From contig CAYFLR010000013.1 of assembly GCA_964343805.1 (NCBI GenBank), positions 47,168 to 101,574 on the forward strand: 54,407 nucleotides of DNA. Direction: 5' to 3'. A program made the position numbers and the translations under genes. This stretch comes from an uncultured bacterium. GTDB lineage: Bacteria; Bdellovibrionota_B; Oligoflexia; CAYFLR01. Below the pieces are notes generated by a model. It saw nothing but the letters and a program-made list of their open reading frames with translations. It ran no database searches and had not been told where the DNA came from. Below, piece by piece: positions 4,367-54,407 of the stretch (the first letter of the stretch is position 1; the number at the start of each line of letters is the position of its first letter).

Positions 4367-4367
4367 C

Positions 4368-6251: not shown

Positions 6252-6304
6252 TTTTAGCTCCTGCATTGTAATCACAGCATCCCCCAACAACCTTTATAAC
6301 TATT

Positions 6305-7582: not shown

Positions 7583-7686
7583 CTCTATCTCCTTAAAAAG
7601 TTTAAAACGAATGATGATTGAATTATATCAAAAAAGAGAACTCTCTGATACCCAACCCGAGAACCCTCCTTAAGGAAAAAGCTAAG

Positions 7687-7714
7687 TTTACAAATCCTGT
7701 AAATATAGTATAAT
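7687..7714 (+). promoter_or_regulatory. sigma70-like promoter candidate (TTTACA-16 nt-TATAAT) for the receiver gene
   Basis: TTTACA at 7687-7692 and TATAAT at 7709-7714 with a 16-nt spacer, about 45 nt upstream of the ATG at 7759, which has a GGAG RBS. Confidence 0.5.
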
Positions 7715-7758
7715 CAATAGCATATCCTAGGATCTTAAACCTTTGGAGTGACTCATAT

Positions 7759-8145: not shown

Positions 8146-8287
8146 AAAGTGATTACAGCCTGAACTATTAAATTAAAACCATACGAATTTCGACCATTTA
8201 TTGCATTTTAGTTTATTTTTTATTGACTTTAAATAAATTTTCAATTATTTATCCTATTTTAACAACCACTTAAAATAAGGATAAAAC

Positions 8288-8911: not shown

Positions 8912-8913
8912 TC

Positions 8914-9555: not shown

Positions 9556-9565
9556 TTTTAATAGT

Positions 9566-10363
9566 TTATTTCTTACGTTGCATTTGGACATTCACATCAT
9601 TGGGATCAATGCCAGTTTGCTGCTGTACAAAATCCACATCCAGTCGACCACTTAAATACTGTCTAATGAGATATGCACCACTAGAGGCTCCACTCCACTC
9701 GGCTTCAATATGGGTATTGATTCCACCACCTTGACCTCGGTAGAGCTGAATATTCTTACAATTCTCAAGTGGTCCTCCATGGATTCCAATGGTTTCATCT
9801 TGAAAATAGTTAACGCAATTATAGGCTGGCACTTCATCACTAAAAGCTCCAATGGGCTTTGCAACCCCATCCACCATCACAAAAAGATCTGGCAACCAAC
9901 CGCAGGTTTGAGTATACTTTTCGGCAAGTTCCACTGCTAAAGTACTGCCCCAGCTGTTAGCCATGATAATGATTCCGATCTCTTCATTACAGTTCTGACC
10001 ATTCATAAAATACTTCATTACCTCAGATATGCCATGGCTGCCATCATCATGCTCTAAATAAAGGGCATAGGATATTCTATTGTGATAGGAAGGAAGACGT
10101 GACCAAACTCCACTGGGTTCTTTTCCATTGCTGCTATCAATGGTGTTACTTGTTAGCCCATGCCCTTCTGGTTTCCCAGTCAAGAATCCTGAGACAGCTA
10201 CTGTTATATAGGTATTTGCTAGACGGTTGATTTTAGGAAAGGGTCCATTTTCGGTAAAACGGGGCATCATAGAATGATCCCGGTTCAATAGTTTCGAGTC
10301 CTGATTATTGCCACAACCAATAAAAATTAAAGCAAGTAATATGCTTAGACTCAATTTAATCAT
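9566..10363 (-). CDS. lipoprotein, possible lipase/esterase-like alpha/beta hydrolase
   Basis: Start moved to the ATG at 10363 (GGGGGA RBS). Lipobox LALIFIGC/GNN. IIIMANSWGSTLA resembles an A-x-S-x-G nucleophile elbow. The functional call is weak. Confidence 0.45.
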   Translation of the reverse strand: MIKLSLSILLALIFIGCGNNQDSKLLNRDHSMMPRFTENGPFPKINRLANTYITVAVSGFLTGKPEGHGLTSNTIDSSNGKEPSGVWSRLPSYHNRISYALYLEHDDGSHGISEVMKYFMNGQNCNEEIGIIIMANSWGSTLAVELAEKYTQTCGWLPDLFVMVDGVAKPIGAFSDEVPAYNCVNYFQDETIGIHGGPLENCKNIQLYRGQGGGINTHIEAEWSGASSGAYLIRQYLSGRLDVDFVQQQTGIDPNDVNVQMQRKK

Positions 10364-10618
10364 GATTTCCCCCAAAATCTAAAGATCAGCAAAACGATAA
10401 CCGACTTCATTAAAATGCAAAAGAGAGACCAAATTTTTCAATAGGATAACATCCTGTTTTCATTTAAGTGTTTATATATTAGCTTTCATTCACTGCTCCT
10501 ATCTGTATCTAAATTAGACAGAGTGTCGAATCCCTAGACAGGATTCTCTCCACTAAAAGACGGACAATTAACTAAAAATATGCTATTCGACGAAGAAAAA
10601 TTGCAAAGAGGTTACCAT

Positions 10619-10942
10619 ATGTTCAAATCAGCCACCGGCAACAAACAAACAGAATTAATAAAAGGGGTCAATTTAAGCACTTTGGCAGTGGGAAATGACT
10701 CTATGCTTTGTCAATTCAACCTCGAAAAAGATGCAGTAATTCCTAACCATCAGCATCCCTATGAACAAACCGGATATCTTGTAAGCGGCAAAATGGAGCT
10801 CACCATTGATGGCAAAAAGTTTTTAGCGGAACCTGGTAGCAGTTGGAGTATACCTAAAGATGTTCCCCATGAGGCCTTTGTCATAGAAGAGGTTTTAGCC
10901 GTTGAAGTCTTCACCCCCATTAGAGAAGATTATCTACTTTGA
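10619..10942 (+). CDS. cupin-domain protein
   Basis: Cupin motifs PNHQHPYEQTGYLVSGKMEL and PKDVPHEA. The ATG at 10619 has AAAGAGG 7 nt upstream. The ORF-track start at 10580 has no RBS but cannot be excluded. Confidence 0.7.
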   Translation: MFKSATGNKQTELIKGVNLSTLAVGNDSMLCQFNLEKDAVIPNHQHPYEQTGYLVSGKMELTIDGKKFLAEPGSSWSIPKDVPHEAFVIEEVLAVEVFTPIREDYLL

Positions 10943-27552: not shown

Positions 27553-29631
27553 GTGGCTCTGAATTATTATAGCAGTCAAAAAGAAGATAAAGGCAGTGAA
27601 AAGTCCATAGGCTACTTTAGCGATCTGTTTGCACTGCTTTGCTTTATTTTTCTCTTTCTCTATGTGATTTCTACCTTGCAACAGAATTTATCCTCCTTGA
27701 ATCAAAATATAAAAAGTCAAAAGGTAGAGAAGAACTACGATCAGAAGATCAAAAATATTGTGCAGGAATATGAAAAGCAGATGGTAGTTTTTCAAAAAGA
27801 GAAAGAGGAATACATCAAACAGCATGCCACTAAAGAGCAGAAAAACACCTACGAAGATGTCCTTGAGAAATTAAAGGCCGTGAAGTTGAAAGAGCAGAAG
27901 AAGCTAGAAGCCTATCAAGACCTCATGGATAAAACTCAAAATAAGATTAAAAATATCTTCTCTCTCAATAAACAAATTGAAAATATAGCGGCCTCAAATT
28001 TAGTGGCCTCTGCCCAAATTAAAAAGCTAAAAGAAGAGAAAGAAAAAATAAAAAAGCAAAAGGAACAGGAAGAGTTAAGGAAAAAGCAAATTCTCGAAGA
28101 GATGCAGAAAAAGGTAGAGGAGAAAGAGAAACAAAAGCAGGTAGCTATCTTAAACGTAAAGAAACAAACCCAAGATGTTATTCAAAAGAAAGAAAAAGAA
28201 TTGAAACAAAAAGTTAAGAAAGTGCAAGAAATGGCTATCTCCATGGTGAAACAGACCAAGGAAGAGATGACTAATAAATATGAACAGAAAATAACCGAGC
28301 AGGACAAAAATTATAAAGAACAGATAAATACCATCCAAAAACAAACTAAAGAGCAGTTACAAAAGCAAAAGCAGGATTGGCAAAAAGAAATAGAAGCCAA
28401 AGATCAGCAGATGAGCATGAAGGTCCAAGAGTTTCAAGACAAAATCACGACTCAAGAACAGCAGTATAAACAGCAAATTACCACTCAAGAACAGCAGTAC
28501 AAGCAGCAAATTACTACTCAAGATCAACAATACAAACAAAAAATTGCCCAACAAGAGCAACAATATCAACAAGAGATCTCACAAAAAGTTCAGAAATATG
28601 AACAACAAATTCAAAAGCAAGGGCAACAGCATCAACAGGAGATGACATCTCAAGATCAAAACTATAAGCAGCAGATAAACAGTTTACAAAAAGCAAGCCA
28701 AGATCAACTGCAAAAACAAAACGCTTTATGGCAGAGCGAGCTACAAAGCAAAGAGCAGAACTGGCAGGCCAAAACCAATGAACTGCAACAATCTCTCAGC
28801 CAAAACAAAGACGCCTTCGCCCAATTTAAGAGTGCCGCTCAGGCAAAAGAAGATCAGTTGAAACAAGACATGAAAAATGCCCTTGTAGAAAACACCGCTG
28901 CTCTCACAGCTAATTTTGATAATCAAATGGCAGAAGCAGATAGTCAACATAAGAAAAAATACAGTGGCTTAAAAGATAAATATAAAGCAGCGGTTGAAGA
29001 TAAATGGCGCCTCATTGACAAAGTCAACATATTTGCCGAACCTCAAGCGAAATTGGTCGACCGAATTCATGGGAAGTTAACTGAAGCCTTTAAAAAAGCC
29101 GGTATTGAAGCCGATGTAAATCCCACATCTGGAGAGGTGACCATCAAGTTTAGAGACACCTTCTTTGATTTTGATAAGTCAGATTTAAAAGACGAAATGA
29201 AGGACCAGGTTGCTAAACTTTTTCCTATTTTTGCCAAGACGATATTAGGTGATCGAAGTATTGCTAGAAGGGTTAAATCCTTTGACCTCATTGGTTATGC
29301 TTCCCCTGTCTATGGCGGAGGATTTGTTTATCAAGATGCTCGCACCGAGTTCGGACGACGAGCCCTAAAATACAATATGGATTTGAGCTACCAACGAGCA
29401 CAATCGATTTTTCACTATGTATTCAACCCGGAAAACGTCAAATTTAAATACCAAAGATCCATGCTTAGAAAAACCAAAGTGATCAGTATGAGTCACCTAG
29501 GTACCAAACTCAAAAGGCTATTACCTGAGTATGACAAGAGTAAGCATTTTTGTGAAAATTATGACTGCCAAGAGTGGCAAAAAACATCGATTCGATTTAA
29601 TTTTCGACAACCCAGATTTGAGGGTAAATAA
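27553..29631 (+). CDS. MotB/TolR-like Asp-TM protein with ~430 aa of K/E/Q-rich coiled coil and a C-terminal OmpA/MotB-like peptidoglycan-binding domain
   Basis: GTG start, preceded in frame by TAA, with GAGG 6 nt upstream. Single TM GYFSD24LFALLCFIFLFLYV mimics the MotB YADFMTAMMAFF context. Long heptad-like region spans about residues 45-470. The C-terminus FDFDKSDL...DLIGYASPVY...YNMDLSYQRAQSIF matches the OmpA_C pattern (N..LS..RA). Confidence 0.75.
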   Translation: MALNYYSSQKEDKGSEKSIGYFSDLFALLCFIFLFLYVISTLQQNLSSLNQNIKSQKVEKNYDQKIKNIVQEYEKQMVVFQKEKEEYIKQHATKEQKNTYEDVLEKLKAVKLKEQKKLEAYQDLMDKTQNKIKNIFSLNKQIENIAASNLVASAQIKKLKEEKEKIKKQKEQEELRKKQILEEMQKKVEEKEKQKQVAILNVKKQTQDVIQKKEKELKQKVKKVQEMAISMVKQTKEEMTNKYEQKITEQDKNYKEQINTIQKQTKEQLQKQKQDWQKEIEAKDQQMSMKVQEFQDKITTQEQQYKQQITTQEQQYKQQITTQDQQYKQKIAQQEQQYQQEISQKVQKYEQQIQKQGQQHQQEMTSQDQNYKQQINSLQKASQDQLQKQNALWQSELQSKEQNWQAKTNELQQSLSQNKDAFAQFKSAAQAKEDQLKQDMKNALVENTAALTANFDNQMAEADSQHKKKYSGLKDKYKAAVEDKWRLIDKVNIFAEPQAKLVDRIHGKLTEAFKKAGIEADVNPTSGEVTIKFRDTFFDFDKSDLKDEMKDQVAKLFPIFAKTILGDRSIARRVKSFDLIGYASPVYGGGFVYQDARTEFGRRALKYNMDLSYQRAQSIFHYVFNPENVKFKYQRSMLRKTKVISMSHLGTKLKRLLPEYDKSKHFCENYDCQEWQKTSIRFNFRQPRFEGK
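28447..28545 (+). repeat. 3x 33-bp in-frame tandem repeat (TTQEQQYKQQI)
   Basis: The units are acgactcaagaacagcagtataaacagcaaatt / accactcaagaacagcagtacaagcagcaaatt / actactcaagatcaacaatacaaacaaaaaatt. Confidence 0.9.
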
Positions 29632-29633
29632 TT

Positions 29634-30509
29634 ATGGAACCAGGAATCATTCACCACCTCTTAGAAATGCTGTCAGAGTCGGCTGGCAATTATATGATGG
29701 CCCTGATGGTCGGCACCTTCTGTGTAGCATTTGTGGTTAGGCTGTGTATTTATTACATCATTAAAAGTGAACAAAAGTTCACCAAAGAGTTTGAGGCCAG
29801 AGTGGTCAGGCATATGATGAATGAATACAAAACGGGAAAAAACTGGACCTTTCAAAAAATCACCGACTTTCTTTTAAAGAAGACATTTCATGAGACCTAT
29901 TTATTACAGAAAGTCCAAGGCCTCAGAAGAATTAAATATCTGTTTACCCAATTGCTCAATAAGATATTTGGAATAGAAAGAGGAGCCAATCTAATCATTG
30001 AAGATACCCTTCAGCAAACTAAGTTTTTACGCGGCGGCATGGAGCAAAATTTCGACATGGGACTCAACTTTGTCTTTTCCTCTAACCCCTATTTCAATCG
30101 ACTCTTTAGGATATTCTCTATCGGAATGATTGATGACATTTTATCTATCTTACCAGGCATCTTTATTATTGGAGGTCTCTTCGGTACCTTTCTCGGTATC
30201 ATGGGAGGTCTCCCCGCCTTGCAGGTGATGGATGTAACCGATATGCAAAAATCAAGTGAAACCCTGAATTTCTTTTTAAGAAATATGGGTTTTGCCATGG
30301 GGACATCTGTATTGGGAATTTTACTATCAGTGGGTACCACCGTACTGAATACTATTTTTTCACTCAAATCCATCTATGTTGATTTAATTGAGCGCTATAA
30401 AAACTCGCTCATTTTCCTATTTAAAGAAACCACCACTAAAGTAAAAAAAGCTCGTCTCATTACCCGATCCGAGCCAAAACCAGAGGAATCAAAAACTATC
30501 CCAGCTTGA
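29634..30509 (+). CDS. MotA/TolQ/ExbB-family proton-channel-like protein (3 TM)
   Basis: The ATG lies 2 nt after the upstream stop. Topology is TM1 (YMMALMVGTFCVAFVVRLCIYYI), a ~130-aa loop, then LPGIFIIGGLFGTFLGIMGGL (ExbB/TolQ G-L-x-G-T-x-x-G pattern) and AMGTSVLGILLSVGTTVLNTIF. Confidence 0.7.
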   Translation: MEPGIIHHLLEMLSESAGNYMMALMVGTFCVAFVVRLCIYYIIKSEQKFTKEFEARVVRHMMNEYKTGKNWTFQKITDFLLKKTFHETYLLQKVQGLRRIKYLFTQLLNKIFGIERGANLIIEDTLQQTKFLRGGMEQNFDMGLNFVFSSNPYFNRLFRIFSIGMIDDILSILPGIFIIGGLFGTFLGIMGGLPALQVMDVTDMQKSSETLNFFLRNMGFAMGTSVLGILLSVGTTVLNTIFSLKSIYVDLIERYKNSLIFLFKETTTKVKKARLITRSEPKPEESKTIPA

Positions 30510-30518
30510 GGCTAACCC

Positions 30519-31010
30519 ATGAAACAAATGCGGCTGATGATTTATGTTTCTCAAGGAGTTTTCCATGTTGCAGGAGACTTAGATCAAGATTCCACATTTG
30601 AAGAGATCGAAGATTATTATATGGATCCGGTCATCATGGATCTCACCGGGTTAAGGCGGATTGACGCCTTAGGCTCGAAAAGATGGATCGAAATACTTGA
30701 AATGCTACAGGAAAGAAAAATATTTTTACGAAATTGCCCTCAGGTTGTGATAGAGCAAATCAATATGTTTCCTGAGTTTTTAGTCCATGCTCAAATTCGT
30801 TCCTTCTCCATGCCATTTTACTGTGAATCATGCCAAACAGAGCAGTCTTTTAAAGCCACTATGAAAGAGGCCAAGAAAGAAAACTTTCTTTCAACTATCA
30901 ACGATCGTTATGAATGTGAGGACTGTGAAGCACTAGTTCAATTGAAACCCAATGTAGATGAATATTTTGAATTTCTAGCACCCTATTTAAAGCCAGAAGA
31001 GACCAGTTAA
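30519..31010 (+). CDS. STAS-like domain protein with a C-terminal 4-Cys zinc-ribbon
   Basis: VFHVAGDLDQDS...VIMDLTGLRRIDALGSKRWIEILEML follows the STAS/anti-sigma-antagonist pattern, with Ala at the usual phospho-Ser position (DALG rather than DSSG). Then come CESC...CEDC. GAGG RBS. Confidence 0.55.
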   Translation: MKQMRLMIYVSQGVFHVAGDLDQDSTFEEIEDYYMDPVIMDLTGLRRIDALGSKRWIEILEMLQERKIFLRNCPQVVIEQINMFPEFLVHAQIRSFSMPFYCESCQTEQSFKATMKEAKKENFLSTINDRYECEDCEALVQLKPNVDEYFEFLAPYLKPEETS

Positions 31011-31031
31011 TTTCATTTGTGAGAGTGACCT

Positions 31032-31745
31032 ATGGGCTTATTTTCCAGTTTAAAAAATTTAGTGACAAAAGAGGATCTCCAACAAGAGTATGAACTCAGA
31101 GAATGCCGTATTTTGGTAGATCAAATTGAGGGGGTCAGTTTTTCACTTAAAGAAAATGAGAACGAGATTCCCATAAAAATTGATAATATTTCTATCAATG
31201 GAATAGGTCTGAGTAAGGATTCGGTGGACAATTGGGGAGAAGTTGGAAGCTCCCTTTTTGGTAAATTACATTTCGATCAAAAAGATTATGATGTGCAAAT
31301 GGAGATCGCTCGCATTACCCCTTCTTTGATTGGCTGTAAATTCACAGAATTCCCCACAGAATATGAAGAGCACTTTGAAGAATTCTTTGCCGTAGAACTG
31401 GCCGCTACTGATTTGGTTCCCATTACCATGCAGGGCTTATCCCAAGAAAGCGAAGAGGGAAAACCCTTTTATTATAAAGGAGATAATGACTGTCTGATTA
31501 AACTGCTAGAAAAAGATAAAAATGTCATCTCATTTTCTATCTCCTTTTTAGGACATAATGTAGGCTTTGAAGTTAATAAACCTTTAAAAGCCTGGTTTGA
31601 AGATAATGAAGAAGGAGAAGAAACAGGCTCGAACTTTGTTCAAATTATCAAGACAACTCGGAGCTTCTTGAATAACACCTCCTGTCTACCCAAAGAGCAA
31701 AGAGCTTTTATTTTAGAGCAACTAAATTCGGGACCTGCAACTTAA
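31032..31745 (+). CDS. PilZ-like domain protein
   Basis: IDNISINGIGLS matches the (D/N)xSxxG PilZ motif. Later PilZ barrel strands are GKLHFDQKDYDVQMEIARITPSLIGCKF. The upstream RxxxR motif is degenerate (LRECR). Confidence 0.55.
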   Translation: MGLFSSLKNLVTKEDLQQEYELRECRILVDQIEGVSFSLKENENEIPIKIDNISINGIGLSKDSVDNWGEVGSSLFGKLHFDQKDYDVQMEIARITPSLIGCKFTEFPTEYEEHFEEFFAVELAATDLVPITMQGLSQESEEGKPFYYKGDNDCLIKLLEKDKNVISFSISFLGHNVGFEVNKPLKAWFEDNEEGEETGSNFVQIIKTTRSFLNNTSCLPKEQRAFILEQLNSGPAT

Positions 31746-41248: not shown

Positions 41249-42436
41249 TTAAAGCCCTAATCGATTAAATAACCTTGCCTTTAAATCCCAATACAATTGA
41301 ACAATGGAAGGCAATGGATCATGCCAAGCGAAAAAAGGAAACTGATGCCATCTGAGCCAAGAACGAACCCAAGCTGCAAAGGTGATTTTTCCTTCTCGTC
41401 GTAAACATCGATAGGAATCAATATCCTGAATGGGGTACCAAAGGGTCACATACTCTTTAAAGGAATCTAACTTAGGAACCGCTCTCCCTGTTAAATGGCA
41501 ATATACAAGATAAGCAACATCCATATTCGATTTCACCAGAATCTCATGAGCAGCAGTTATACGAGCATTGACTTCAATCAACTTAAGTTTATTGTCGCGA
41601 GCATCATGCTTAAATTCAATATTACAAAGACCAGTAAAACCAATTCCTCTAAAATATTTTTCACCCTCTTTGGCGGTATCAGGCAGCCATTTGGATTCAT
41701 GATAACAACCTCCACCAAAATTAGGCTGAGTCCGGCGAATCACTCGCTTGGTATATTTAAAAAGGTTATTTCCTTTGGCATCAATATGAGTGTAATAACT
41801 GCTATTACAGGTATCTGGCCCAGGAATAAATTCACAAATCATAAACTCAATTTGCTTGGCCTTAACCTCTTGTGCCCAACGCAGTAAGTCCTCTTTATTA
41901 TCAACTAACAGTAATTTTTTATCATAATGTTTTTGAAAAAGATGAGTAAAGATGGGCTTAATCAACACCGGATAAACAGCGGTATCAGCAATTTTTTGCA
42001 AATCATTCAGTTCATCCGGAAACCAAAACTTGGGAGCTTCAATCCCCACTTGCTCTGCGAGTTCGAGAGTCTTTCGTTTATTCAGCATATCCAGCTGTTT
42101 ACTGGGAATTTGACAGTCGAGGATGAAGTCTTTTTCCAGTTCGTCCCGTGCTTCGATCATAAAATCAATGGCGGAATCCCCACAGGCAAATATGACACTT
42201 CCCTTTAGCTCTGGGTATTTACCGGATAAAGTGATATCGCGATAGTGATCTACAGCCGAAACACCTTCCGGAATAGGGATGCCTTTTTTTAAATATCTCG
42301 ATTTATAAACAGCACAATCTGCATAGGTAGCTACTGTGACAGGAATTCCATATCCATGAAAGGCTCTTACAATGGCCAAAGTATTTTCGCGACCATCGAG
42401 TAACAGAACGGGGGCGAGATTATTTTCTATCGACAT
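41249..42436 (-). CDS. ATP-grasp ligase (COG3919-like carboxylate-amine ligase)
   Basis: VLLLDGRENTLAIVRAFHGYGIPV pre-ATP-grasp pattern, YPVLIKP, FMICEFIPG, and IEFKHDARDNKLKLIEVNARI (Mg/ATP site E-x-N). Start taken at the ATG at 42436 (MSIENN), overlapping the upstream gene by 17 nt. Confidence 0.75.
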   Translation of the reverse strand: MSIENNLAPVLLLDGRENTLAIVRAFHGYGIPVTVATYADCAVYKSRYLKKGIPIPEGVSAVDHYRDITLSGKYPELKGSVIFACGDSAIDFMIEARDELEKDFILDCQIPSKQLDMLNKRKTLELAEQVGIEAPKFWFPDELNDLQKIADTAVYPVLIKPIFTHLFQKHYDKKLLLVDNKEDLLRWAQEVKAKQIEFMICEFIPGPDTCNSSYYTHIDAKGNNLFKYTKRVIRRTQPNFGGGCYHESKWLPDTAKEGEKYFRGIGFTGLCNIEFKHDARDNKLKLIEVNARITAAHEILVKSNMDVAYLVYCHLTGRAVPKLDSFKEYVTLWYPIQDIDSYRCLRREGKITFAAWVRSWLRWHQFPFFAWHDPLPSIVQLYWDLKARLFNRLGL

Positions 42437-43499
42437 TATCAAGTGTTCCTTGTAACAAAATAGCTGCCACCGAATAATCTGGATCAGGATTCGCAACTAA
42501 ATAGTGATGATGGAGTCCTGGACCCGCATTAATATCAGTGGTAATAGCACCAGATTCTTTCAGATCCTGTTGAAGATTGGTCGCTAAGAGATCTAATCCA
42601 AATAGTTTAATCTGAAGAATATCGGCAATCTGCTCCCCAAGCTTAATAATTGAAGGATGGGGAGCTCCCTGCTCAATATGGTTTTCGGTAGCAGAGTTTT
42701 GATTCACCACTCGTTTTAAAATGATTCTCTCACCCTTAGCTGGTACCGACCCTGGATAGAGATTCTGACTCTCTAAATAGAGCTTTGCTTCGAGATCGAT
42801 CTCTAATGGATTTAAAGAAGTGATGGGATTTCCTTTCAATCTTTTTTCGTTTTCTAGTTCAACCAATCTGAGAATACTATGATTGCCATCTCCGATAATC
42901 ACAGGAGGATCTCTCCGAACTACATGAATCAGCTTCTTATTAAAAAAGAGCAGCCGGTAGGAATTTTTAGACACTTGTTCTTCTGCTAAAAATTCAGAAG
43001 AATAGGCTTTTGCCTTCACCAAAGCCCAAAAAAGTTGACTCTTGGTAGTTATACCGGTTGTTATACCCATCCCAGCACCGGTTCCGGAAGCTGGTTTTAT
43101 CACAATGGGATTACTTTTTGCTCTTAGAAAGTGTAAAACTGAGCCTAAATTATTAAGATTAAATTCTATAAAAGGGGGAGGTTTATAACCTTCAATTAAA
43201 GGAGTGAGTAAATGATGACCCACCGCCTTATCATCTGCTAGTAAAAGGCTCACAGAAGGGTCTAGATTCAAACCTGATTGTTTGACAAAGGTGGATTTCC
43301 CCTCCTTCTCAACTTGATAAAACCCATTGCCCAATTCTTTGATGGACGCACCTATATCGGCAGCAGTTTTAGGCCACAGCTCTTTGAAAAATTTTTGCCT
43401 GAGCTGACCATAGCGAGCATAATAATTTCGTCTTTGAAAATTAAAAAGGTTGATGATGCGGATCACCACCGACATGATATTTACAGCAAGTTTCAGCAT
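42420..43499 (-). CDS. ATP-grasp ligase resembling the ATP-grasp domain of cyanophycin synthetase
   Basis: PIVIKPASGTGAGMGIT, YRLLFFNKKLIHVVRRDPPVIIGDGNHSILRLVELENEKR, HPSIIKLGEQIA and LFGLDLL...DINAGPGLHHH are colinear with CphA-type ATP-grasp blocks. AGGAG RBS. Confidence 0.7.
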   Translation of the reverse strand: MLKLAVNIMSVVIRIINLFNFQRRNYYARYGQLRQKFFKELWPKTAADIGASIKELGNGFYQVEKEGKSTFVKQSGLNLDPSVSLLLADDKAVGHHLLTPLIEGYKPPPFIEFNLNNLGSVLHFLRAKSNPIVIKPASGTGAGMGITTGITTKSQLFWALVKAKAYSSEFLAEEQVSKNSYRLLFFNKKLIHVVRRDPPVIIGDGNHSILRLVELENEKRLKGNPITSLNPLEIDLEAKLYLESQNLYPGSVPAKGERIILKRVVNQNSATENHIEQGAPHPSIIKLGEQIADILQIKLFGLDLLATNLQQDLKESGAITTDINAGPGLHHHYLVANPDPDYSVAAILLQGTLDNVDRK

Positions 43500-43545
43500 A
43501 ATAATCTCCTGGCAACCGTCTGCAAATTATATATTAATATCTGGC

Positions 43546-45861
43546 TTATAACAAGGAGGGATCCTCATGATCAGATAGGGTAATCTCTTCGCCTTGAGCC
43601 AATTCTTGCCCCTTATAGAGCGCATCGGCAGCTAAAATTCCTCTATGCACTCGACCGGAAGGATAAAGATTGATTGAGCTTTCAGCCACAAAAGTAAAAG
43701 GTCCCTGTTTATAATCCTTAGATAGAATTGCATTTTGAACTCGTTCATTTTCATAGAAAGTGACCCACTTAAACTCTCTCACTGGCACACCAAAAATTTC
43801 ATATTCCCAAATGAGATGTGTTTTACGAGGGTGACCGGAGGGATAAAATTCGGTCTGCTCGAAGTAATGATATCCCCTTGAATCCTTGGCGCGCCAAATA
43901 TTAGTAGACTTCAAATTTCCATTGGGCCAAAACTCCACCGGAAAGTCATCGGTAATCTGAAAGTTTTTAGACTTCCAGAAGGCACCCGTAACAAAGGACT
44001 TAACTTTGCCATCTTCATAAAAAGAGACATATTCACCGGCTTTCAAAGGAAATCCTTCCCATTCCATAGCCTGTCTAACAAAGAGTCTTTTGAGTTGGCA
44101 ATTCCCATAAAAAACCTTGGTTTCCGCCAGACCCGCTTCATGACAAAGAGCAATTAAAGAGGGAAGATCTTTGGTGATATCATAAGAGGTTTTTTCATAA
44201 TGTTGAACCAGATGATCCAGGGCGTCTCCTCGCATCTCTTTTTTACTTTCATCTGCTACAATCACCTCTAGGGCCTCGGGACGAGAGCTATCCAGAATAT
44301 CAAAACTCATACCTGGAACGTACTCATTGCCGTGTTCTCCACTTACTAAGAAAGGAGAATTCGTCTTGGAAATTCTTTTAGCAAGTCGATTGATCTTGGT
44401 AATAATACCTAACCAGGAAAGGGATTTCTTTTGATAATTTGACCATCTAGGCTTCTTAATGGCACGCGCCGCAGTTTCAAGAGGTTTTAAAAGACCCATT
44501 TGATGACCTTCCCCTTTGATGCCATCATAAGTGGTTATCACATCAATGTATTTTGCATCTTTGACAGCCAGAACCGAATTCACTCCATAGGCATAGCTAG
44601 AACAGCCATTCAAAAGTACAATTTGATAACGATTGGCTGGGTAAAGTTCAGGAACGGTAAAGTGACGCTCTATATTTTGTCCATAACCAGAATGTCCGTT
44701 ATAAATAATTATCTCATCATTACCTAAAGCCCATTTGAGTTTTAAATTGGGAGCTTCATGATATTCACTGAGAATGCTGGTGATGTTAAATCGGATTCCG
44801 CCTACTGTTTTCTGTAATGCCACTTCACTGATATGGCCCTCATCATCTTTCTTAACTAAAGTTTTTCGGTAACCACTTCGACTCAATCGGCGCACGAATC
44901 TCTTCATAAAACCAGGGGAAGACTGACCCACCGGGCTAAATAATACAAAGATGTCAACCTGCCCATCTTTAAACAACTGCTGATACTCTGGGTATTTAAC
45001 GGATGCCAGCTTTGGCTTGATATCTGTAATCGTTAAATTGACTGTATTTAAGGTTTTACAACCTCTGATTTTCTGATTGTAGTAATAAAAAAAGTTAAGT
45101 GGAGAGATCCCATCTCCGTCTGGCTTAATGCAGGTGGATTCTCTGGTGCCCTTAGCACTTTTTTCCATCAGCATCTGGCGTTCTAGATTATCTAACACTT
45201 TTAAATTCTGACCTTTTTTTACTAAATCGATAGAATTATGATAAAAATCAATGAATTCACTTCCCATGGACTGATAGAAAACCCCCAGTACATCCTGAGG
45301 AACCGGAATCTGATATCCAACACTCAGTAAACTTCTTGATTCACCAGAGAGCTCGGATTTTGACATTTGAATACCAGTACATAGAGCCACATAGTCAATG
45401 GTAATGAGGCCGGAATTATCTTTAACTTTAACCTCTGAAGAGATGATCTTGTCCAAAGTGAGTACAATTCTCTCTGATGCCAAAGGATACCAGGAGTATT
45501 TGATCTGTCTTTTGACCCAACCTTCGATGGCTTTATGATCTTTGATTGCGGGTAGAAGATCTTGAATTTTTTGACGAATTTTAAATTTTAGCTCTTCAGG
45601 ATTGGACAGAGATTCTTTAAGATTGACGATGCCAGGATCTTTCTGATGATCGAAGATTTCTCTTTGTAGGTCATAGAGAGCGGCCAATAATAAGGGCTCC
45701 TCATGGGCAGGGATTTGCAGCGAACCTTCTATAACATAGTTAAATTCTTCAACATAATTGGAAAGAGTCTTCACCTCACTGGGGGTCTCTTGATGACATC
45801 CATGGAGAAAAACAAAAAACAATGTAAAAACAAATAGTTGAATCGGTAAAATTTTATTCAT
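43546..45861 (-). CDS. large lipoprotein with a clan-CD-like His/Cys dyad region and C-terminal MORN-variant repeats
   Basis: ATG at 45861 with GGAG 8 nt upstream. Lipobox FVFLHGC/HQE. EIIIYNGHSGYG..(30 aa)..QIVLLNGCSSYAYG. C-terminal repeats: FYEDGKVKSF, WPNGNLKST, FYPSGHPRKT, FYENERVQNA, LYPSGRVHRG. Confidence 0.6.
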   Translation of the reverse strand: MNKILPIQLFVFTLFFVFLHGCHQETPSEVKTLSNYVEEFNYVIEGSLQIPAHEEPLLLAALYDLQREIFDHQKDPGIVNLKESLSNPEELKFKIRQKIQDLLPAIKDHKAIEGWVKRQIKYSWYPLASERIVLTLDKIISSEVKVKDNSGLITIDYVALCTGIQMSKSELSGESRSLLSVGYQIPVPQDVLGVFYQSMGSEFIDFYHNSIDLVKKGQNLKVLDNLERQMLMEKSAKGTRESTCIKPDGDGISPLNFFYYYNQKIRGCKTLNTVNLTITDIKPKLASVKYPEYQQLFKDGQVDIFVLFSPVGQSSPGFMKRFVRRLSRSGYRKTLVKKDDEGHISEVALQKTVGGIRFNITSILSEYHEAPNLKLKWALGNDEIIIYNGHSGYGQNIERHFTVPELYPANRYQIVLLNGCSSYAYGVNSVLAVKDAKYIDVITTYDGIKGEGHQMGLLKPLETAARAIKKPRWSNYQKKSLSWLGIITKINRLAKRISKTNSPFLVSGEHGNEYVPGMSFDILDSSRPEALEVIVADESKKEMRGDALDHLVQHYEKTSYDITKDLPSLIALCHEAGLAETKVFYGNCQLKRLFVRQAMEWEGFPLKAGEYVSFYEDGKVKSFVTGAFWKSKNFQITDDFPVEFWPNGNLKSTNIWRAKDSRGYHYFEQTEFYPSGHPRKTHLIWEYEIFGVPVREFKWVTFYENERVQNAILSKDYKQGPFTFVAESSINLYPSGRVHRGILAADALYKGQELAQGEEITLSDHEDPSLL

Positions 45862-46026
45862 GACAGTCTCCGGCAAAAAATATCCGACCTCATAAATACC
45901 CATATTTTTAGTAAATGTCAATAATTTTTGTGTTTTTACCAAATTAAAATAAGCATAAACCCAATAGACAGAGCTAATCTACTGATATAAAATCTAATTT
46001 TAATACTCAAACACTTTGGGGGAAAA

Positions 46027-47499
46027 ATGTTAAAAAAATGGCTTTTTATTTTATTTCTCTTCACTGGATGCGTGGATGATAAAGAGATTTATGAGTATGT
46101 ATTAGATCATGTTGGGGATGAAGATAAAGAGATATCTAAGTATAAAATAAAACTATTAAAACTCAGAGGAGCAAAGGTTAACTACCAAGACAAAGAGGAT
46201 AAATATAGTCCACTCCACCTTGGGGCTCAATTTTGCGATTATAATGCAATTAATATTTTAATTGCTGAAGGAGCAAATATTAACATTGAAAATAAGAGAA
46301 ATGTCATTCCTTTATTTAGTGCATTATCTTTAGACTGTAAACCTGAAATATTAAAACTCCTGCTCACCAATGGATCAAATTTAGTCAAATCCTCGGGTAC
46401 TTCCGCAATTTTTATCGGCACCTCTAAAAATATCTCCATTGACAGAATAAAGTTATTAATGGAATACGGTGCGGATATAAATTCCAGGTCTCGAAACGGA
46501 CACACTTTATTGCATAGAGCTGCTATAGCGAGGGCTGATATTAAAACCCTCGAATTTCTAATTAAAAAGGGCATAGACATAAATGCCATTGATAAAAAAG
46601 GTAATACAGTATTAGCCACATATTTATCCCAGCGGGTTGATTATGAACGGACAGGATCGGGTAAACGGACACCAGATCCCTCTCCCCAAGAAATACAAGA
46701 TCTCAAATTTGTGGAAACTTTATTAGCCCATGGAGCGGATATAAATTTAAAAAATAAAGAAAGAAATACCCCCTTGTTTTTAGCCACCTCATGGCCAATC
46801 AGCCCTTTAATTATCAAGTTATTAATTAAAAAAGGGGCCAAAGTGAATGAAAGAAACCATGCTGGAAAAACTCCTCTTTTTAATCATATGCACCATAATT
46901 ACCACTTTGACTATGTCCAGTTTCTCATAAATAACGGGGCTAAGGTGAATATAAAAGATAATGAAGGGCGCACTCCCCTGCACTATCCATTTTCACTGCC
47001 AACACGAGCACTTAAACTATTTATTCAAAATGGTATAAATATAAACAGCAAGGATAAAAGCGGACAGACTCCTCTGCACATTGCTGTTTTTAGAGCCAAG
47101 CCAAGAATCATAGAGAAATTATTGGCTTTTGGTGCAGATTCTAACGCCCGCGATAAAGCAGGGGTTAGGCCAATTCATTTATGTGCAAGGGTGCGATACC
47201 CTCCTGAAATAGATATCTTAGTTAAAAATGGTGCAAAACTCCACTTTAAAGACAATATAGGACAAACAGTATTACATTACGCAGTAAGGAAATCTAATTC
47301 TCATATTAAAAAGAAATCTGGTAGACGTAGAAGAGGGAGGGAAGCCCCAGATCGTGAGAAAACCACAATAGAATATTTGATTTCAAAAGGAATAAAGATC
47401 AACATAAAAGATAAAAATGGTCAAACACCCCTTGATGTTGCCAAAGCAGCCAAATTTGATCATATAGTAGATTTTCTGTTAAAACATGGAGCAAAGTAA
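46027..47499 (+). CDS. ankyrin-repeat lipoprotein
   Basis: Lipobox LFLFTGC/VDD. At least 10 ANK units (SPLHLGAQFCDYNAINILIAEGANIN; GHTLLHRAAIARADIKTLEFLIKKGIDINA; QTPLHIAVFRAKPRIIEKLLAFGADSNA, and so on). Confidence 0.9.
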   Translation: MLKKWLFILFLFTGCVDDKEIYEYVLDHVGDEDKEISKYKIKLLKLRGAKVNYQDKEDKYSPLHLGAQFCDYNAINILIAEGANINIENKRNVIPLFSALSLDCKPEILKLLLTNGSNLVKSSGTSAIFIGTSKNISIDRIKLLMEYGADINSRSRNGHTLLHRAAIARADIKTLEFLIKKGIDINAIDKKGNTVLATYLSQRVDYERTGSGKRTPDPSPQEIQDLKFVETLLAHGADINLKNKERNTPLFLATSWPISPLIIKLLIKKGAKVNERNHAGKTPLFNHMHHNYHFDYVQFLINNGAKVNIKDNEGRTPLHYPFSLPTRALKLFIQNGININSKDKSGQTPLHIAVFRAKPRIIEKLLAFGADSNARDKAGVRPIHLCARVRYPPEIDILVKNGAKLHFKDNIGQTVLHYAVRKSNSHIKKKSGRRRRGREAPDREKTTIEYLISKGIKINIKDKNGQTPLDVAKAAKFDHIVDFLLKHGAK

Positions 47500-49446: not shown

Positions 49447-50283
49447 GTGAAAAGAATAAGCTCTCTGTTCATCTTCTTTATTCTAATAATTTATATACTT
49501 ATTGCTTATCAAAACTGTGGCTCACCTAATCCCAATGCAACTAAAAGCGGGTCTTTATACCCGGGTGTTTACAGTAACTCCCCTGAACAAGAAACCAATG
49601 ATCCAGATATTACTTATTCAAATAGCAAGTATTCGAGTAGAGATGAAGCACCTCCAGGAAAAGAAGATTGGGTAATTTTCAACATGGATATATTAAAAAA
49701 AATAGGAGAACAATGTCACCCTCCTAAGAAAATCACCATGCCTTTAAGCGGACCTCAACTAGCAAAGTTTTTACCAAATAGTATTAGTGGGTTAAAACAT
49801 GTATCAACAAGTTGTGATCCAGAAGATTGGCCTCTTGATTATTACAAAAATAGTGAAAATGAAACAAGTGTTAATCTATTTAAAAAGTTTTCAACTGATG
49901 GGCAATCTAGCACTTTTTCAGAAGATGGCATGAAGGTCCAAATACATGATTTTTCCTTTAATAGTTTTGGAAAGGATATTTCTTGGAATCACCTAGACAA
50001 TGCTTCTATACGGGCAATGATTGAGAGCAATGATCATATTAGATTCGAAAAAACTGCCCGAGGTGATCATAAATTCATTATAAATGAAAATAGAGAAAGA
50101 CCAGCCATTCATATTTACATTGCATGCCGATTTTATGTTTCCTTTATAGGCGAAACTTACTTTAGTATGGATAAAATAAAAGAGGCCGTGGTCGAGCACC
50201 TTCCTTCTATGCAAAAAATCGCAGATTATGCGGACAAATCCGGAGATAAAGACTCCCAATGCGAAAAGATCGAAGAGGATTAA
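49447..50283 (+). CDS. hypothetical secreted or lipoprotein-like protein
   Basis: GTG start with an AAGAGGAA RBS. Hydrophobic N-terminus ending ..LIAYQNC/GSP. No recognisable domain. Confidence 0.55.
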   Translation: MKRISSLFIFFILIIYILIAYQNCGSPNPNATKSGSLYPGVYSNSPEQETNDPDITYSNSKYSSRDEAPPGKEDWVIFNMDILKKIGEQCHPPKKITMPLSGPQLAKFLPNSISGLKHVSTSCDPEDWPLDYYKNSENETSVNLFKKFSTDGQSSTFSEDGMKVQIHDFSFNSFGKDISWNHLDNASIRAMIESNDHIRFEKTARGDHKFIINENRERPAIHIYIACRFYVSFIGETYFSMDKIKEAVVEHLPSMQKIADYADKSGDKDSQCEKIEED

Positions 50284-50284
50284 A

Positions 50285-51103
50285 TTAAGAACAGCCAAAT
50301 TGCCGAGTGGTCCAACTAATAATCCTCTCCATCAACTCCTTTTTCTCTTTTAGGGGAGTAAAAAGATGATCACTGTTTTCAAAGAAATCCAACTCTACAC
50401 AATCTTTAAAATCCACTCCTTTAAACATGTCATAGAATTGGTTTTTGTAGTTATAGTAATCTAAAACCCCGTTGGTGTAGATATAGTAGAGTTTTAAGTC
50501 TTTGTTAACCAACTGCTGAAGATCTTCTTTAACCTTTTCCCTTGGAGGAAAATCCCAAAAGGCCACTTGTGATTCGGGAGCCACCTTGTTGGTGCCTATG
50601 ATTTTCATTAATAAAATTAAAAAATGGCGAATCCATTTTCTAAAGCGAAAGAGTTTTAAAAAATAGTAGAAGAAGTACTTGCGAGTCTTATATCCATAGG
50701 AATCAATAAGAATAGAACCTGCTACTTTATCCTCTGTTAACATCAATTCATGAGCATTCAGAGCGCCAGAACAAAAACCGATTAAAATTGATTTTTCCCC
50801 TCCTATTTTAGAAAGACCATACTCAATAGCTTGCTTTAAATCATAGTCGGTTTTATCTCCTTTCTCCTGATAGCTCACATTATAACTATCACCCACTCCT
50901 GATAAATCGAATCTTAAAGTGGAAAAACCGAGTTCAGCAAATTTACGAGCAAGTAATACTTGAATACGATGAACTCCAGTTTTAGCAATAAGACCAGCAT
51001 TCCAAAAAACAATCAATGGGAGTTTACCATGCTCCGAGGAGGGAGTGGTAAGAATTCCATGTAAATTTTTTCTTTCACCAAAGGCTACGATCTCTTCATT
51101 CAT
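50285..51103 (-). CDS. alpha/beta-hydrolase-fold protein with Cys at the nucleophile elbow (G-F-C-S-G); paralogue of the NRPS C-terminal domain
   Basis: The ATG lies 1 nt after the NRPS TGA. LPLIVFWNAGL..HRIQVLLARKFAELGFSTLRFDLSGVGDS ... SILIGFCSGALNA ... KVAGSILIDSYGY. From memory, the pattern matches hydrolase 1 of exosortase-A-associated clusters (unverified). Confidence 0.65.
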   Translation of the reverse strand: MNEEIVAFGERKNLHGILTTPSSEHGKLPLIVFWNAGLIAKTGVHRIQVLLARKFAELGFSTLRFDLSGVGDSYNVSYQEKGDKTDYDLKQAIEYGLSKIGGEKSILIGFCSGALNAHELMLTEDKVAGSILIDSYGYKTRKYFFYYFLKLFRFRKWIRHFLILLMKIIGTNKVAPESQVAFWDFPPREKVKEDLQQLVNKDLKLYYIYTNGVLDYYNYKNQFYDMFKGVDFKDCVELDFFENSDHLFTPLKEKKELMERIISWTTRQFGCS

Positions 51104-51104
51104 T

Positions 51105-54100
51105 TCAATCTTCCCTGAGAAAGTTGGTAATTTTATCTAATATAGGAATAGGTAGAAGAACCTCTCCATGTTGAGCATTATCATTCCAAAGGATGCCACT
51201 TTCAAAGTTGGCGAATTTTACTAATTCCTTATCAGCGTAATCCATATAAAACTTGCGCATCTGTCGATTGTGATTAGAGCTAATGATCAAAGTCTCATTT
51301 TGCTGATTTAAATCCTCACTATAGAGGTCTATATCTTCAATTTCATTTTTCATAGATGTTGGAAGTTCATACCCTAGAAGTTCAGTGGGGTTTTTTATTC
51401 GAGGAATAAACTTACTCCAAAACTGGTGTTTCCCCTGTTCAATGAGTTTCAAAACCTGCCTTTGGATACAACTGAGATTTTTTATCAATTCATCTCCTTT
51501 TAGAATTGGATCCCATAAAACCAGTTTATAGCCTTCTTTGGAAAGATAAGCTGCTAAGGTGGCTCCTAATCTAATTCCCACCATAGAAACTTTATCGACT
51601 TTTATCTGATCTTTAAAAAAGGCAAGGGCGGTTTTGATATCTTGCTTCCACCTTGTAAGTGCCATTTGATCGTTTTCTCCAAAGGAGTCTCCTGTTCCAT
51701 AATAATCAAATTTAAAAACATGGAATCCTTTCTTAACTAATCTTTCCGCGAGGTTGCGATAGGCAAGGTGAACTCGATGATTTTCTTGTGGCATAGGATA
51801 TAATAAGAGCACTCCCTCTCCGTTAGCCTTTTCTGCAGGAGGTGTATAATGAACACCAAACAGACGATCCTCAGTTTCTGCTTGGGGTGGAAAGTAAAAC
51901 ATCCTGGGAAAATGAAGATCAGATTCGAGATCGTTATCTACTCTCGATGTTTTTTCATCCTCCTTCACTTCTAATTGCTGTGACATTTGATCTAAAGTAT
52001 CAGTGAGCATCATACGAGGAGTAACTCCATGTTCACACTGATCCTTGATTTTTTGAATCACTTGCACCGCCAACAAAGAGTGACCCCCCAGTTGGAAAAA
52101 ATTATCTTCGATTCCCACTTCAGATAGAGAAAGTACCTCTTTCCAAATATCAATTAAAATTTGTTGAGCTCTTGTCACATTGGTTCGCACATGAGAGGCT
52201 TTAACAAAAAACTTGCCGGTGGTTGGCAAAGCTTTGCTATCAATTTTACCATTTAAAGTGCGGGGAAATTCTTTCATTTTAACCAAATGACTGGGTATCA
52301 TATACTCAGGGAGTTTCTCTCTCAAAAAGGAACGCATCGCCCCATGATCAAGGATTTCACCATCCTCTAATAGGACATAGGCGACTATGGCTTTATTTTG
52401 ATTGATCTCTTTGAGTCGAACCACCCCTTGCATAATCGCTGGATGTTCGTTTAAGATAGTTTCAATTTCTCCTAATTCAATTCGATATCCTCGAAGTTTA
52501 ATTTGACTATCATTTCGACCTAAGCACTCCAATAGTCCCTCTTTATTATAGCGAGCCAAATCCCCCGTTTTATAGATGGTGATAGTCTTATTACCATAGG
52601 AAAAGGGAATAAATTTCTCCGCTGTTAATTCGGGTCGACCATGATACCCCATGGTCACCCCATCTCCCCCAATATGGAGTTCGCCTATTTTGCCAGGAGG
52701 TAAAACCTTTCCTTTTTCATTCAAAATAAAAACTTGGGTATTAAAAATGGGCTCACCTATCAAAATGGGATTCTGGGGCCGAGTAATTTTATGACAAGTT
52801 GACCATACTGTGGTTTCGGTGGGACCATACATATTCCACAAACTCTCCACTTTTCCCACAAGATTTTGAGCTAAATCGAGGGGAAGTGGTTCTCCTCCAC
52901 AGAGCGCTTTAAAATCGGATTTTCCGGGCCAACCTGCTTCTAATAAAAGCCTCCAGGTGATGGGTGTTGCCTGCATTAAGGTGATGTCAAACTCTTCAAT
53001 ATGATGTTTTAATTTAGCACCATCTATAGCAGTTTCTCTTTCAGCAATGGTGACACTTCCCCCCATGACCAATGGCAAGAAGAGTTCAAGGACAGCTATA
53101 TCAAAGGAGATGGTGGTTACCGCTAAAAGATGATCCCGATCGGTGAACCCTGGAGTATGGGACATTGAGTAGAGGAAGTTCACGGCATTTTGATGAGTGA
53201 CCAGCACCCCCTTTGGTTTACCAGTACTCCCAGAGGTATAAATCATATAGGCAATATTATTAGGAGAGAATTCGAAAAGGTCTGGTGAATAAGAGAACTC
53301 AGGGTTAAAGTCAAAATCATCCACCTGTACAATCTGATTTGGGTGAGCAGGAACTTCGGATGCTGTAGAGGATTCGGTAACCACAAAGGGCATGTTAGAA
53401 TCTTCTATCATATAGGCCAAACGGTCTTCCGGGTAATTGGGATCTAAAGGAACATAACCACAACCACTCTTCCAAATGGCGAGCATAGCAATAAGCATGG
53501 ATGCGGATCGCTCCATACAAATACCAATGAGTTGATTCGCTTCAACCCCTAGGTCCAGTAACTGATGGGCCAACTGATTCGATTTCTCTTCCAGCTCACC
53601 ATAAGAAAGCTCACCTTTATAATCGTATACTGCAACTTGATCTCGCTGCAAAGAGGCTTTGCGGCTGATCAGATGATGAACTCCCTCTTGGTGATTATAG
53701 CTCACTTCGGTGTCATTCATTTTATTTAAAATAGCCAGTTGCTCTTTATTAACGATTTGAGAGAGTTCATGAATCGTTTTTTGAGGAGATTGAATCACCT
53801 GAGTCAAAATTTGTTCATAATAATTTAACCATTTAAGTATCGTCTCACTCTTAAAAAGGTCAGTGTTATACTGCGTCTCTAAAGTAAACACACCGTCCCC
53901 TTTACTCACATTGATAAAAAGTTCGAAGTTTTCAAAGTAACGAGGATTTGACTCGTAAGATGCTGTTATATTTTTAAACTTAAAATCTTTACTCTCGATT
54001 TTTTGATCAATATTAAAAGTGATAGGCATCAAAGGAATATGGCTGGCATCCCTTTTAATATTCAAATCCTTTAACAGGCTCCCGTAGGTGTAGACCTGGT

Positions 54101-54407
54101 TTTCGTAAGCCGAGAGCACTCCCTTTTTAATGATATGTAGAAACTTGGAAAAAGAGCTTTGGTCATCTATTAGAGTGCGAATAGGAAGCATATTGACACA
54201 ATGCCCGATGAGATAGTACTCACCCAAAATAGACTGCTCAGCCGCGGGCATACCAATGACCAAATCATCCTGATCGGAAAGTGAGTATATGAGCACATTG
54301 AATGCAGCCAACATCACATGCACTAAGCTGGTCCCTTCAGCAGCTCCTAATTTAGCTAAAGAAAATTCTAGCTCTGAATTTAAATGATAATCGATGCGAT
54401 GAGCATA
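51105..54407 (-). CDS. NRPS, 5'-truncated at the window edge: C (C5-C7 part) - A - T - C-terminal alpha/beta-hydrolase-like domain
   Basis: The frame stays open to nt 54407. C-domain motifs: IGHCVNMLPIRT, YENQVYTYG, RDASHIPL. A-domain motifs: AYMIYTSGSTGKPKGV, FDIAVLELF, NMYGPTETT, GELHIGG, YKTGDLARY, GRNDSQIKLRGYRIELGEIE, NGKID. T domain: FFQLGGHSLLAV. The C-terminal ~270 aa read GVLLLYPMPQE..FKFDYYGTGDS..MVGIRLGATLA. Confidence 0.9.
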   Translation of the reverse strand, partial: YAHRIDYHLNSELEFSLAKLGAAEGTSLVHVMLAAFNVLIYSLSDQDDLVIGMPAAEQSILGEYYLIGHCVNMLPIRTLIDDQSSFSKFLHIIKKGVLSAYENQVYTYGSLLKDLNIKRDASHIPLMPITFNIDQKIESKDFKFKNITASYESNPRYFENFELFINVSKGDGVFTLETQYNTDLFKSETILKWLNYYEQILTQVIQSPQKTIHELSQIVNKEQLAILNKMNDTEVSYNHQEGVHHLISRKASLQRDQVAVYDYKGELSYGELEEKSNQLAHQLLDLGVEANQLIGICMERSASMLIAMLAIWKSGCGYVPLDPNYPEDRLAYMIEDSNMPFVVTESSTASEVPAHPNQIVQVDDFDFNPEFSYSPDLFEFSPNNIAYMIYTSGSTGKPKGVLVTHQNAVNFLYSMSHTPGFTDRDHLLAVTTISFDIAVLELFLPLVMGGSVTIAERETAIDGAKLKHHIEEFDITLMQATPITWRLLLEAGWPGKSDFKALCGGEPLPLDLAQNLVGKVESLWNMYGPTETTVWSTCHKITRPQNPILIGEPIFNTQVFILNEKGKVLPPGKIGELHIGGDGVTMGYHGRPELTAEKFIPFSYGNKTITIYKTGDLARYNKEGLLECLGRNDSQIKLRGYRIELGEIETILNEHPAIMQGVVRLKEINQNKAIVAYVLLEDGEILDHGAMRSFLREKLPEYMIPSHLVKMKEFPRTLNGKIDSKALPTTGKFFVKASHVRTNVTRAQQILIDIWKEVLSLSEVGIEDNFFQLGGHSLLAVQVIQKIKDQCEHGVTPRMMLTDTLDQMSQQLEVKEDEKTSRVDNDLESDLHFPRMFYFPPQAETEDRLFGVHYTPPAEKANGEGVLLLYPMPQENHRVHLAYRNLAERLVKKGFHVFKFDYYGTGDSFGENDQMALTRWKQDIKTALAFFKDQIKVDKVSMVGIRLGATLAAYLSKEGYKLVLWDPILKGDELIKNLSCIQRQVLKLIEQGKHQFWSKFIPRIKNPTELLGYELPTSMKNEIEDIDLYSEDLNQQNETLIISSNHNRQMRKFYMDYADKELVKFANFESGILWNDNAQHGEVLLPIPILDKITNFLRED

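Follow-up and report, generated by a model that had tools for sequence, protein, structure and literature searches.

A hydrolase-fold pair with one cysteine and one arginine elbow as a candidate chain-release module of a nonribosomal peptide synthetase in an uncultured Oligoflexia bacterium

Genes at the locus

The DNA analyzed here is a stretch of 54,407 nucleotides (the window) from an uncultured bacterium of GTDB lineage Bdellovibrionota_B, Oligoflexia, CAYFLR01, which corresponds to positions 47,168 to 101,574 of the forward strand of contig CAYFLR010000013.1 (assembly GCA_964343805.1). Close to its right-hand end, and both on the minus strand, lie the 3′ part of a nonribosomal peptide synthetase (NRPS) gene and the gene for a stand-alone alpha/beta hydrolase of 272 aa. 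Our subject is the pair formed by this small protein, called hydr1, and a related domain at the C-terminus of the NRPS, called hydr2. The NRPS open reading frame (ORF) was called at 51105..54323, and its frame is uninterrupted as far as the window edge at 54407; based on the translation, Pfam matches, and colinearity with the closest locus found elsewhere (L002), the gene is taken to span 51105..54407 and to encode condensation (C), adenylation (A), and thiolation (T) domains followed by hydr2.

The NRPS gene ends with a TGA codon at 51105-51107, and the hydr1 gene (50285..51103) starts one nucleotide further on. This TGA-A-ATG junction (51101..51107) reads ...GAT TGA A ATG AAT..., with a purine-rich AGGGAAG immediately 5′ of the hydr1 start region, and it agrees with a preliminary description of the same DNA that had placed the hydr1 ATG 1 nt past the NRPS stop. 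As far as can be read from the sequence, the junction indicates that the NRPS and hydr1 are translationally coupled.

An elongation module without a recognizable thioesterase

Pfam gives the domain order of the visible NRPS as Condensation (partial), AMP-binding, PP-binding, and Hydrolase_4. The C-terminal half of the C domain (53736..54401, minus strand; PF00668, 124 bits, profile positions 226-453) is followed on the same strand by the A domain (52245..53663; PF00501, 282 bits, and PF13193), the T or carrier domain (51981..52160; PF00550, 38 bits), and the hydr2-type domain fused to it (51108..51869). The carrier serine is intact, within a GGHSL motif (codon 52077-52079), and TIGR01733 is matched with 421 bits against a cut-off of 317, making this an NRPS elongation module. 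Neither a thioesterase (TE; PF00975) nor a reductase (R) domain was detected in the NRPS with any Pfam or NCBIfam profile.

The specificity code of the A domain, read by hand from the FDIAV, NMYGPTETTVW, and GKID motifs, is DILQLGMVWK, and is identical in the window and in L002. We take it to be glycine-like by the Stachelhaus codes, in keeping with the glycine substrate that had been assumed earlier.

The L002 locus encodes a 1422-aa C-A-T-hydr2 protein that is 47% identical to the window NRPS and colinear with it from residue 251 of the L002 protein onward, so the window NRPS is probably a single module with some 250 N-terminal residues beyond the window edge. A hydr1 gene, whose product is 42% identical to window hydr1, directly follows the C-A-T-hydr2 gene in L002, and the gene on the upstream side encodes a protein with a C-terminal class-III aminotransferase (AMT) domain, as is also found in the FAAL-T-KS-AT-T-AMT proteins of relatives.

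Paralogy and family assignment

The nucleophile elbow of the fused domain reads V-G-I-R-L-G-A, its Arg being residue 946 of the visible NRPS (Arg127 of hydr2; codon 51570-51572), and that of hydr1 reads I-G-F-C-S-G-A, with Cys111 at codon 50771-50773. Both elbows lie at the coordinates where they had first been noticed, and the suggestion made at the time that the two units are paralogs was confirmed by BLASTP of one against the other (E = 2e-7 across 101 residues) and by hhalign comparison of the two family profiles (99.3% probability, E = 3e-20); by these alignment statistics, the paralogy is beyond chance. In the hhalign register GLCSGA is placed over GlRLGA, which sets Cys111 over the Arg, and Asp134 of hydr1 is placed over the Asp of a W-D-P motif in hydr2. 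Both units have the alpha/beta-hydrolase fold, as judged for hydr2 from the Hydrolase_4 match (36.9 bits, gathering score 27) and for hydr1 from an elbow that follows strand beta5 in an AlphaFold2 model.

The preliminary description had assigned the units to TIGR03100 and TIGR03101, which we take to be hypothetical equivalogs of unknown function, named exosortase A system-associated "hydrolase 1" and "hydrolase 2." Part of that assignment holds, as the best NCBIfam matches come out in the predicted pairing: TIGR03101 (hydr2_PEP) for the NRPS C-terminal domain (3.3e-23, 82.5 bits, profile positions 10-194 of 266) and TIGR03100 (hydr1_PEP) for the stand-alone protein (9.6e-15, 54.6 bits, residues 9-264 on profile positions 9-271 of 274). 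However, both scores are far under the curated cut-offs of 202.75 bits for TIGR03101 and 168.45 bits for TIGR03100, because of which the profile evidence places the hydr1 and hydr2 types as sister clades of the two families and not as members. TIGR03100 is the best match for all 126 hydr1 relatives that were scanned (strongest E-value 1.7e-31), and no other Pfam or NCBIfam family covers these 126 proteins. There is no exact copy of the window hydr1 sequence on record. The hydr2 domain additionally matches Acyl_transf_2 of the LuxD family (27.8 bits, gathering score 20.3) and, weakly, NF052253 LuxD and TIGR01836 (E = 0.011 for the latter).

A Cys-His-Asp triad in hydr1 and a conserved pocket in hydr2

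Conservation and the AlphaFold2 model of window hydr1 (pLDDT 90.5, pTM 0.88) point to a catalytic triad of Cys111, Asp134 (50702-50704), and His246 (50366-50368, all minus strand). All relatives (85/85 and 126/126) share an invariant Cys111 and His246, and Asp134 is kept in 79 of 85 (~93%); further conserved residues are Asn35-x-Gly37, Arg46, Arg53, and Arg64. Cys111 is modeled between strand 105-110 (beta5) and helix 112-123, where a nucleophile elbow is found, while Asp134 comes right after strand 127-133 (beta6) and His246 right after strand 236-241 (beta8). With its acid behind beta6, the arrangement is the standard one for such a triad. Foldseek searches with it returned esterases and lipases only (probability 1.00, TM ~0.6), and neither these nor PDB sequence searches yielded a relative more informative than such generic enzymes.

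Of 84 hydr2 sequences, 78 have Arg at the elbow and six have Gly, and there is no conserved His in the C-terminal half of the 84 sequences that could act as the catalytic one. An ordinary type I TE was considered for the end of the NRPS and rejected, given that PF00975 is silent, that the elbow reads G-I-R-L-G, and that a conserved His is missing; no profile of a Ser-type TE matches either, and the original statement that the NRPS carries no type I TE stands. Conserved residues of the hydr2 pocket are Pro52, Glu56, His61, Arg65, Asp104, and W146-D/E147-P148, the W-D-P motif of the window being at 51510-51518 on the minus strand. His61 is missing from all six sequences in which Gly replaces the Arg, so there appears to be a functional link between Arg127 and His61. 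Another hydr2 position of note is Cys50 at the end of beta3, in the oxyanion-hole region (window codon 51807-51809), which is kept in 78 of 84 sequences; exceptions are Leu in the window and L002, Ser in Desulfoluna, and Ala in a Comamonadaceae locus (L055).

Distribution and genomic contexts of the pair

An exhaustive HMMER search with the hydr1 profile, from which we take the size of the family, returned 2129 representative clusters at E <= 1e-30 and 6119 at E <= 1e-10 (word-indexed searches of protein sequences yielded no more than 5, 3, and 18 matches). To describe contexts, we examined 80 of the >500 loci returned by a scan of species-representative genomes, 78 of which have DNA upstream of hydr1 present and are informative in this respect. 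A hydr2-type unit is immediately upstream of hydr1 in 77 of these 78, so that the gene adjacency typical of TIGR03100/03101 is found here as it is in the window, and the ends of the two genes touch or overlap in many loci.

NRPS or polyketide synthase (PKS) megasynthases are present in 62 of the 80 loci, usually as FAAL/A-T, KS-AT-(T)-aminotransferase, and C-A-T genes that have the pair behind them at their 3′ end. A Pfam scan of five terminal megasynthases showed that each of them finishes in PP-binding or T-hydr2 and that none contains a TE or R domain. The idea that an exosortase-associated cassette had been grafted onto an NRPS in the window is supported inasmuch as the pair follows NRPS/PKS lines, but it does so in dozens of species and is a common arrangement rather than one unique to this DNA.

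The second context is exopolysaccharide (EPS) biosynthesis. Thirteen of the loci, which come from Dyella, Luteibacter, Rhodanobacter, and genera related to these, lack a megasynthase within 10 kb and have the pair inside EPS loci. One of these, from Dyella monticola (L068), has two genes above curated XrtA/PEP-CTERM cut-offs (TIGR03007, 386 bits; TIGR03027, 208 bits) and also encodes an Sfp-type phosphopantetheinyl transferase (PPTase); the same sub-clade of the pair is found in such bona fide XrtA/PEP-CTERM EPS loci of Dyella and its relatives. The window itself has no exosortase gene, as had been reported, with neither a polytopic exosortase-like ORF nor PEP-CTERM-like tails in its 54 kb. 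Both contexts are united on a replicon of Variovorax paradoxus, where two NRPS genes, a PPTase gene, hydr2 (Arg elbow), and hydr1 (Cys elbow) come before genes of the same strand that encode Wza/Wzc-type export proteins, a sugar transferase, glycosyltransferases, and a flippase. This locus surfaced in a plasmid tblastn search for annotated "exosortase A system-associated" hydrolases, of which none were found.

An Sfp-type PPTase is the commonest extra neighbor of the pair (18 loci, XrtA-type loci among them), which points to a carrier-protein substrate. Neighbor clustering was noisy in high-GC loci due to antisense shadow ORFs, and only PPTase and EPS genes stood out.

A third, ligase-free context is seen in L087 (1552-11694), where a hydr2-hydr1 fusion (P0017) is near a PPTase, a free-standing carrier protein, an acyl-CoA dehydrogenase-like protein, a DUF1839 protein, a glycoside hydrolase, and a polysaccharide flippase. 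Two other loci (L003, 11666-13851; L004, 11567-13854) have genes for an RDD-domain protein and a rhomboid protease, convergent after NRPS(C-A-T-C-T)-hydr2-hydr1, with GH3-family and MacB/FtsX genes close by.

Natural fusions

Natural fusions are always ordered T-hydr2-hydr1, and hydr1 is never directly joined to T. Fusion of T to hydr2 occurs at 11 loci from at least four lineages, whose closest relatives are often unfused, implying that T-hydr2 probably arose in several independent events. Single chains of hydr2-hydr1 (P0040, P0098, P0113, P0154, P0014, and P0017) and of A-T-hydr2-hydr1 (P0059 and P0156) were also found, and two proteins (P0100 and P0129) have hydr1 at the N-terminus of FAAL-T-KS-AT-T-AMT. 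An AlphaFold model of the P0040 fusion (535 aa) has a pLDDT of 81 and a pTM of 0.77, the latter of which suggests that the two halves would pack in a defined way.

Proposed role in chain release and alternatives

We propose that hydr2 and hydr1 together act as a two-subunit, Cys-dependent transacylase that off-loads the chain in place of a TE, a reading to which we give a probability of roughly 60%. It is based on the lack of any other release domain and on the position of hydr2, always between the Cys-His-Asp subunit and the last carrier (the one locus without hydr2 is discussed below). The chain that arrives at the last T domain is probably a beta-amino-fatty-acyl-glycine, by analogy with the aminotransferase upstream in L002 and from the glycine-like A-domain code. 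Lacking a catalytic His, and with Arg where a nucleophile would be, hydr2 would serve as the partner next to the carrier, docking hydr1 onto the assembly line and providing a conserved binding pocket. In a heterodimer with hydr2, hydr1 would be the catalytic subunit and would accept the completed chain from the phosphopantetheine arm of the final T domain and hold it as a thioester on Cys111, the general features of its putative Cys111-His246-Asp134 triad being those of an alpha/beta hydrolase. The acyl-S-Cys111 thioester would then be resolved by passing the chain to a nucleophile. A non-water acceptor is more likely than hydrolysis here, because the Cys is invariant, known Cys release enzymes are non-hydrolytic, and the pair recurs in EPS loci.

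As to what the acceptor may be, a tentative and on the whole unlikely extension of this proposal is that the pair attaches carrier-bound products covalently to an exopolysaccharide, a lipid-linked precursor, or an exosortase acceptor. The products so attached would be lipopeptides from NRPS/PKS lines or, in XrtA cassettes, small acyl groups, a detail to which the same reserve applies.

Several observations weigh against the two-subunit transacylase. In L011 (Polyangiaceae, 4171-10858), the sole exception among the 78 informative loci, hydr1 comes right after an A(methyltransferase)-T protein and hydr2 is absent within 10 kb; judging by this locus, hydr2 is not always required. The conserved pocket of hydr2 could support chemistry of its own, beyond an adaptor role. 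Finally, a metagenome scan recovered none of the genes that lie upstream in the cluster to which the window NRPS belongs, for which reason those genes had to be deduced from the orthologous L002.

Were hydr2 an inert degenerate duplicate, kept as a structural remnant, hydr1 could be a trans-acting TE that gives the free acid. This would suit the fold of both units, the esterases and lipases that are their nearest structures, the loss of nucleophile and His from hydr2, and L011 with its unaccompanied hydr1. We nevertheless consider it distinctly unlikely, as an inert remnant would not be expected to keep a strongly conserved pocket with covariation of Arg127 and His61, to accompany hydr1 in 77 of 78 loci, or to be repeatedly fused. 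To our knowledge, an invariant Cys instead of Ser would also be unusual for a hydrolytic TE.

The aminotransferase-terminated PKS that precedes the C-A-T module in L002 and many other loci raises the possibility of a cyclase, in which a free beta-amino group resolves the Cys acyl-enzyme to form a medium-ring lactam (7-membered for beta-aminoacyl-Gly). Known Cys thioesterases do form strained rings (PMC6668435, PMC11298585). Cyclization by a beta-amine cannot be the function of the whole family, though, because an aminotransferase domain is absent from many of the loci that have the pair, such as L035 (A-T/KS-AT-KR-DH-ACP) and the XrtA EPS loci that have no megasynthase, and we regard it as improbable for the pair.

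That the pair is not a release step at all, and is instead a type II TE-like editing enzyme or a LuxD-like acyl-ACP transferase supplying a fatty-acid starter, is highly improbable despite the LuxD-family matches of hydr2 and the N-terminal fusions of hydr1 in P0100 and P0129: the LuxD match spans only ~70 residues around a shared RFD..G.GDS loop, the P0100-type fusion mirrors the gene order hydr2-hydr1-FAAL in L015, the lines have no other release domain, and hydr2 is fused behind the last T domain, away from the loading end.

Comparison with known systems

TIGR03100 and TIGR03101 are the curated families closest to the two-subunit pair, sharing with it the two-gene arrangement and, through one sub-clade, the XrtA/PEP-CTERM EPS loci. 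The pair differs in that its partner, here and in most relatives, is an NRPS or PKS rather than a ligase-ACP-decarboxylase cassette, in the absence of an exosortase from the window, and in scores that are far under the cut-offs. Two alpha/beta-hydrolase-fold enzymes that pass an acyl thioester to a non-water acceptor are the PHA synthase PhaC (Cys-His-Asp) and the Pks13-type TE; the weak TIGR01836 match of hydr2 is a further resemblance, but these enzymes have no significant sequence relationship to the window pair, and their acceptors are a growing polyester or trehalose. In the DltABCD and AlmEFG systems, a ligase or A domain loads an acyl or aminoacyl group (glycine in Alm) onto a carrier for transfer to a cell-envelope polymer. 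The family of the window pair is similarly linked to EPS loci, glycan transfer there being hypothetical, whereas the Dlt and Alm transferases are of other folds (MBOAT/SGNH and LABLAT).

Cys TE domains with non-hydrolytic outcomes are found in the NRPSs ObiF1 (obafluorin; PMC6668435) and SulM (sulfazecin; PMC11298585). The alpha/beta-hydrolase fold, a Cys nucleophile, and a chain received from the last T domain are what they have in common with the pair (PMC6668435, PMC11298585). They differ in being single, cis-acting domains of the PF00975 type, a profile that is silent for the window pair, in which catalysis would fall to a protein of its own and an Arg-elbow paralog stands between hydr1 and the T domain. 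PMC11631085 cites Craig et al. (2011) for a connection of N-acyl amino acid synthases with PEP-CTERM/exosortase systems, which would fit products of the lipo-amino-acid type being tied to these surface systems. In the literature searched we found no report of a function for TIGR03100/03101, of an exosortase together with an NRPS, of TE-less NRPSs with hydrolases, or of the pair as an assembly-line terminus. Release by an alpha/beta-hydrolase fold and the related TIGRFAM pair were known; the split architecture of one Cys subunit and one Arg-elbow subunit is unusual.

The final shape of a nonribosomal peptide or polyketide is decided by chain release, for which we know of few devices (TE, R, and terminal C domains, and PBP-type cyclases). 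The pair looks like an additional and widespread one, considering the 2129 representative clusters at the stricter threshold. Annotation tools now label hydr1 and hydr2 proteins merely as "alpha/beta hydrolase" or "hypothetical," and if the pair were recognized, products could be predicted better for many orphan clusters in Myxococcota, Gemmatimonadota, Proteobacteria, Acidimicrobiia, and Bacteroidota. For the exosortase-A "hydrolase 1/2" cassette, long without an explanation, there would be a defined substrate to test in the form of an aminoacyl or peptidyl carrier protein. If true, attachment to EPS would explain this cassette and form a biochemical bridge from assembly-line products to PEP-CTERM/EPS surface assembly.

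Other features of the window

The neighboring genes in the window are unrelated. A 278-aa ORF with a GTG start (49447-50283, plus strand) is convergent with hydr1 and has no Pfam or NCBIfam match; it was likewise called in a near-identical metagenome contig (L001). The two stops are a single base apart, which leaves no room for a terminator. Upstream of it on the plus strand, ankyrin repeats (Ank_2, 228 bits) make up nearly the whole of a 490-aa protein (46027-47499); together with the G+C content of the window given below, this would hint at a host-associated organism resembling Legionellales. An ATP-grasp protein (415 aa), a 359-aa protein without matches, and a 798-aa protein with a weak MORN-repeat match are encoded in a row on the minus strand (41249-45942).

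Farther away is a four-gene block on the plus strand (27553-31745), encoding proteins without family matches of 692, 291, and 163 aa and a PilZ-domain protein of 237 aa; the 291-aa protein has three hydrophobic segments and a weak ZorA/MotA-like match (32.7 bits). The G+C content of the window is ~39%, and AT skew reaches a striking 0.32 in the stretch from 28 to 30 kb.

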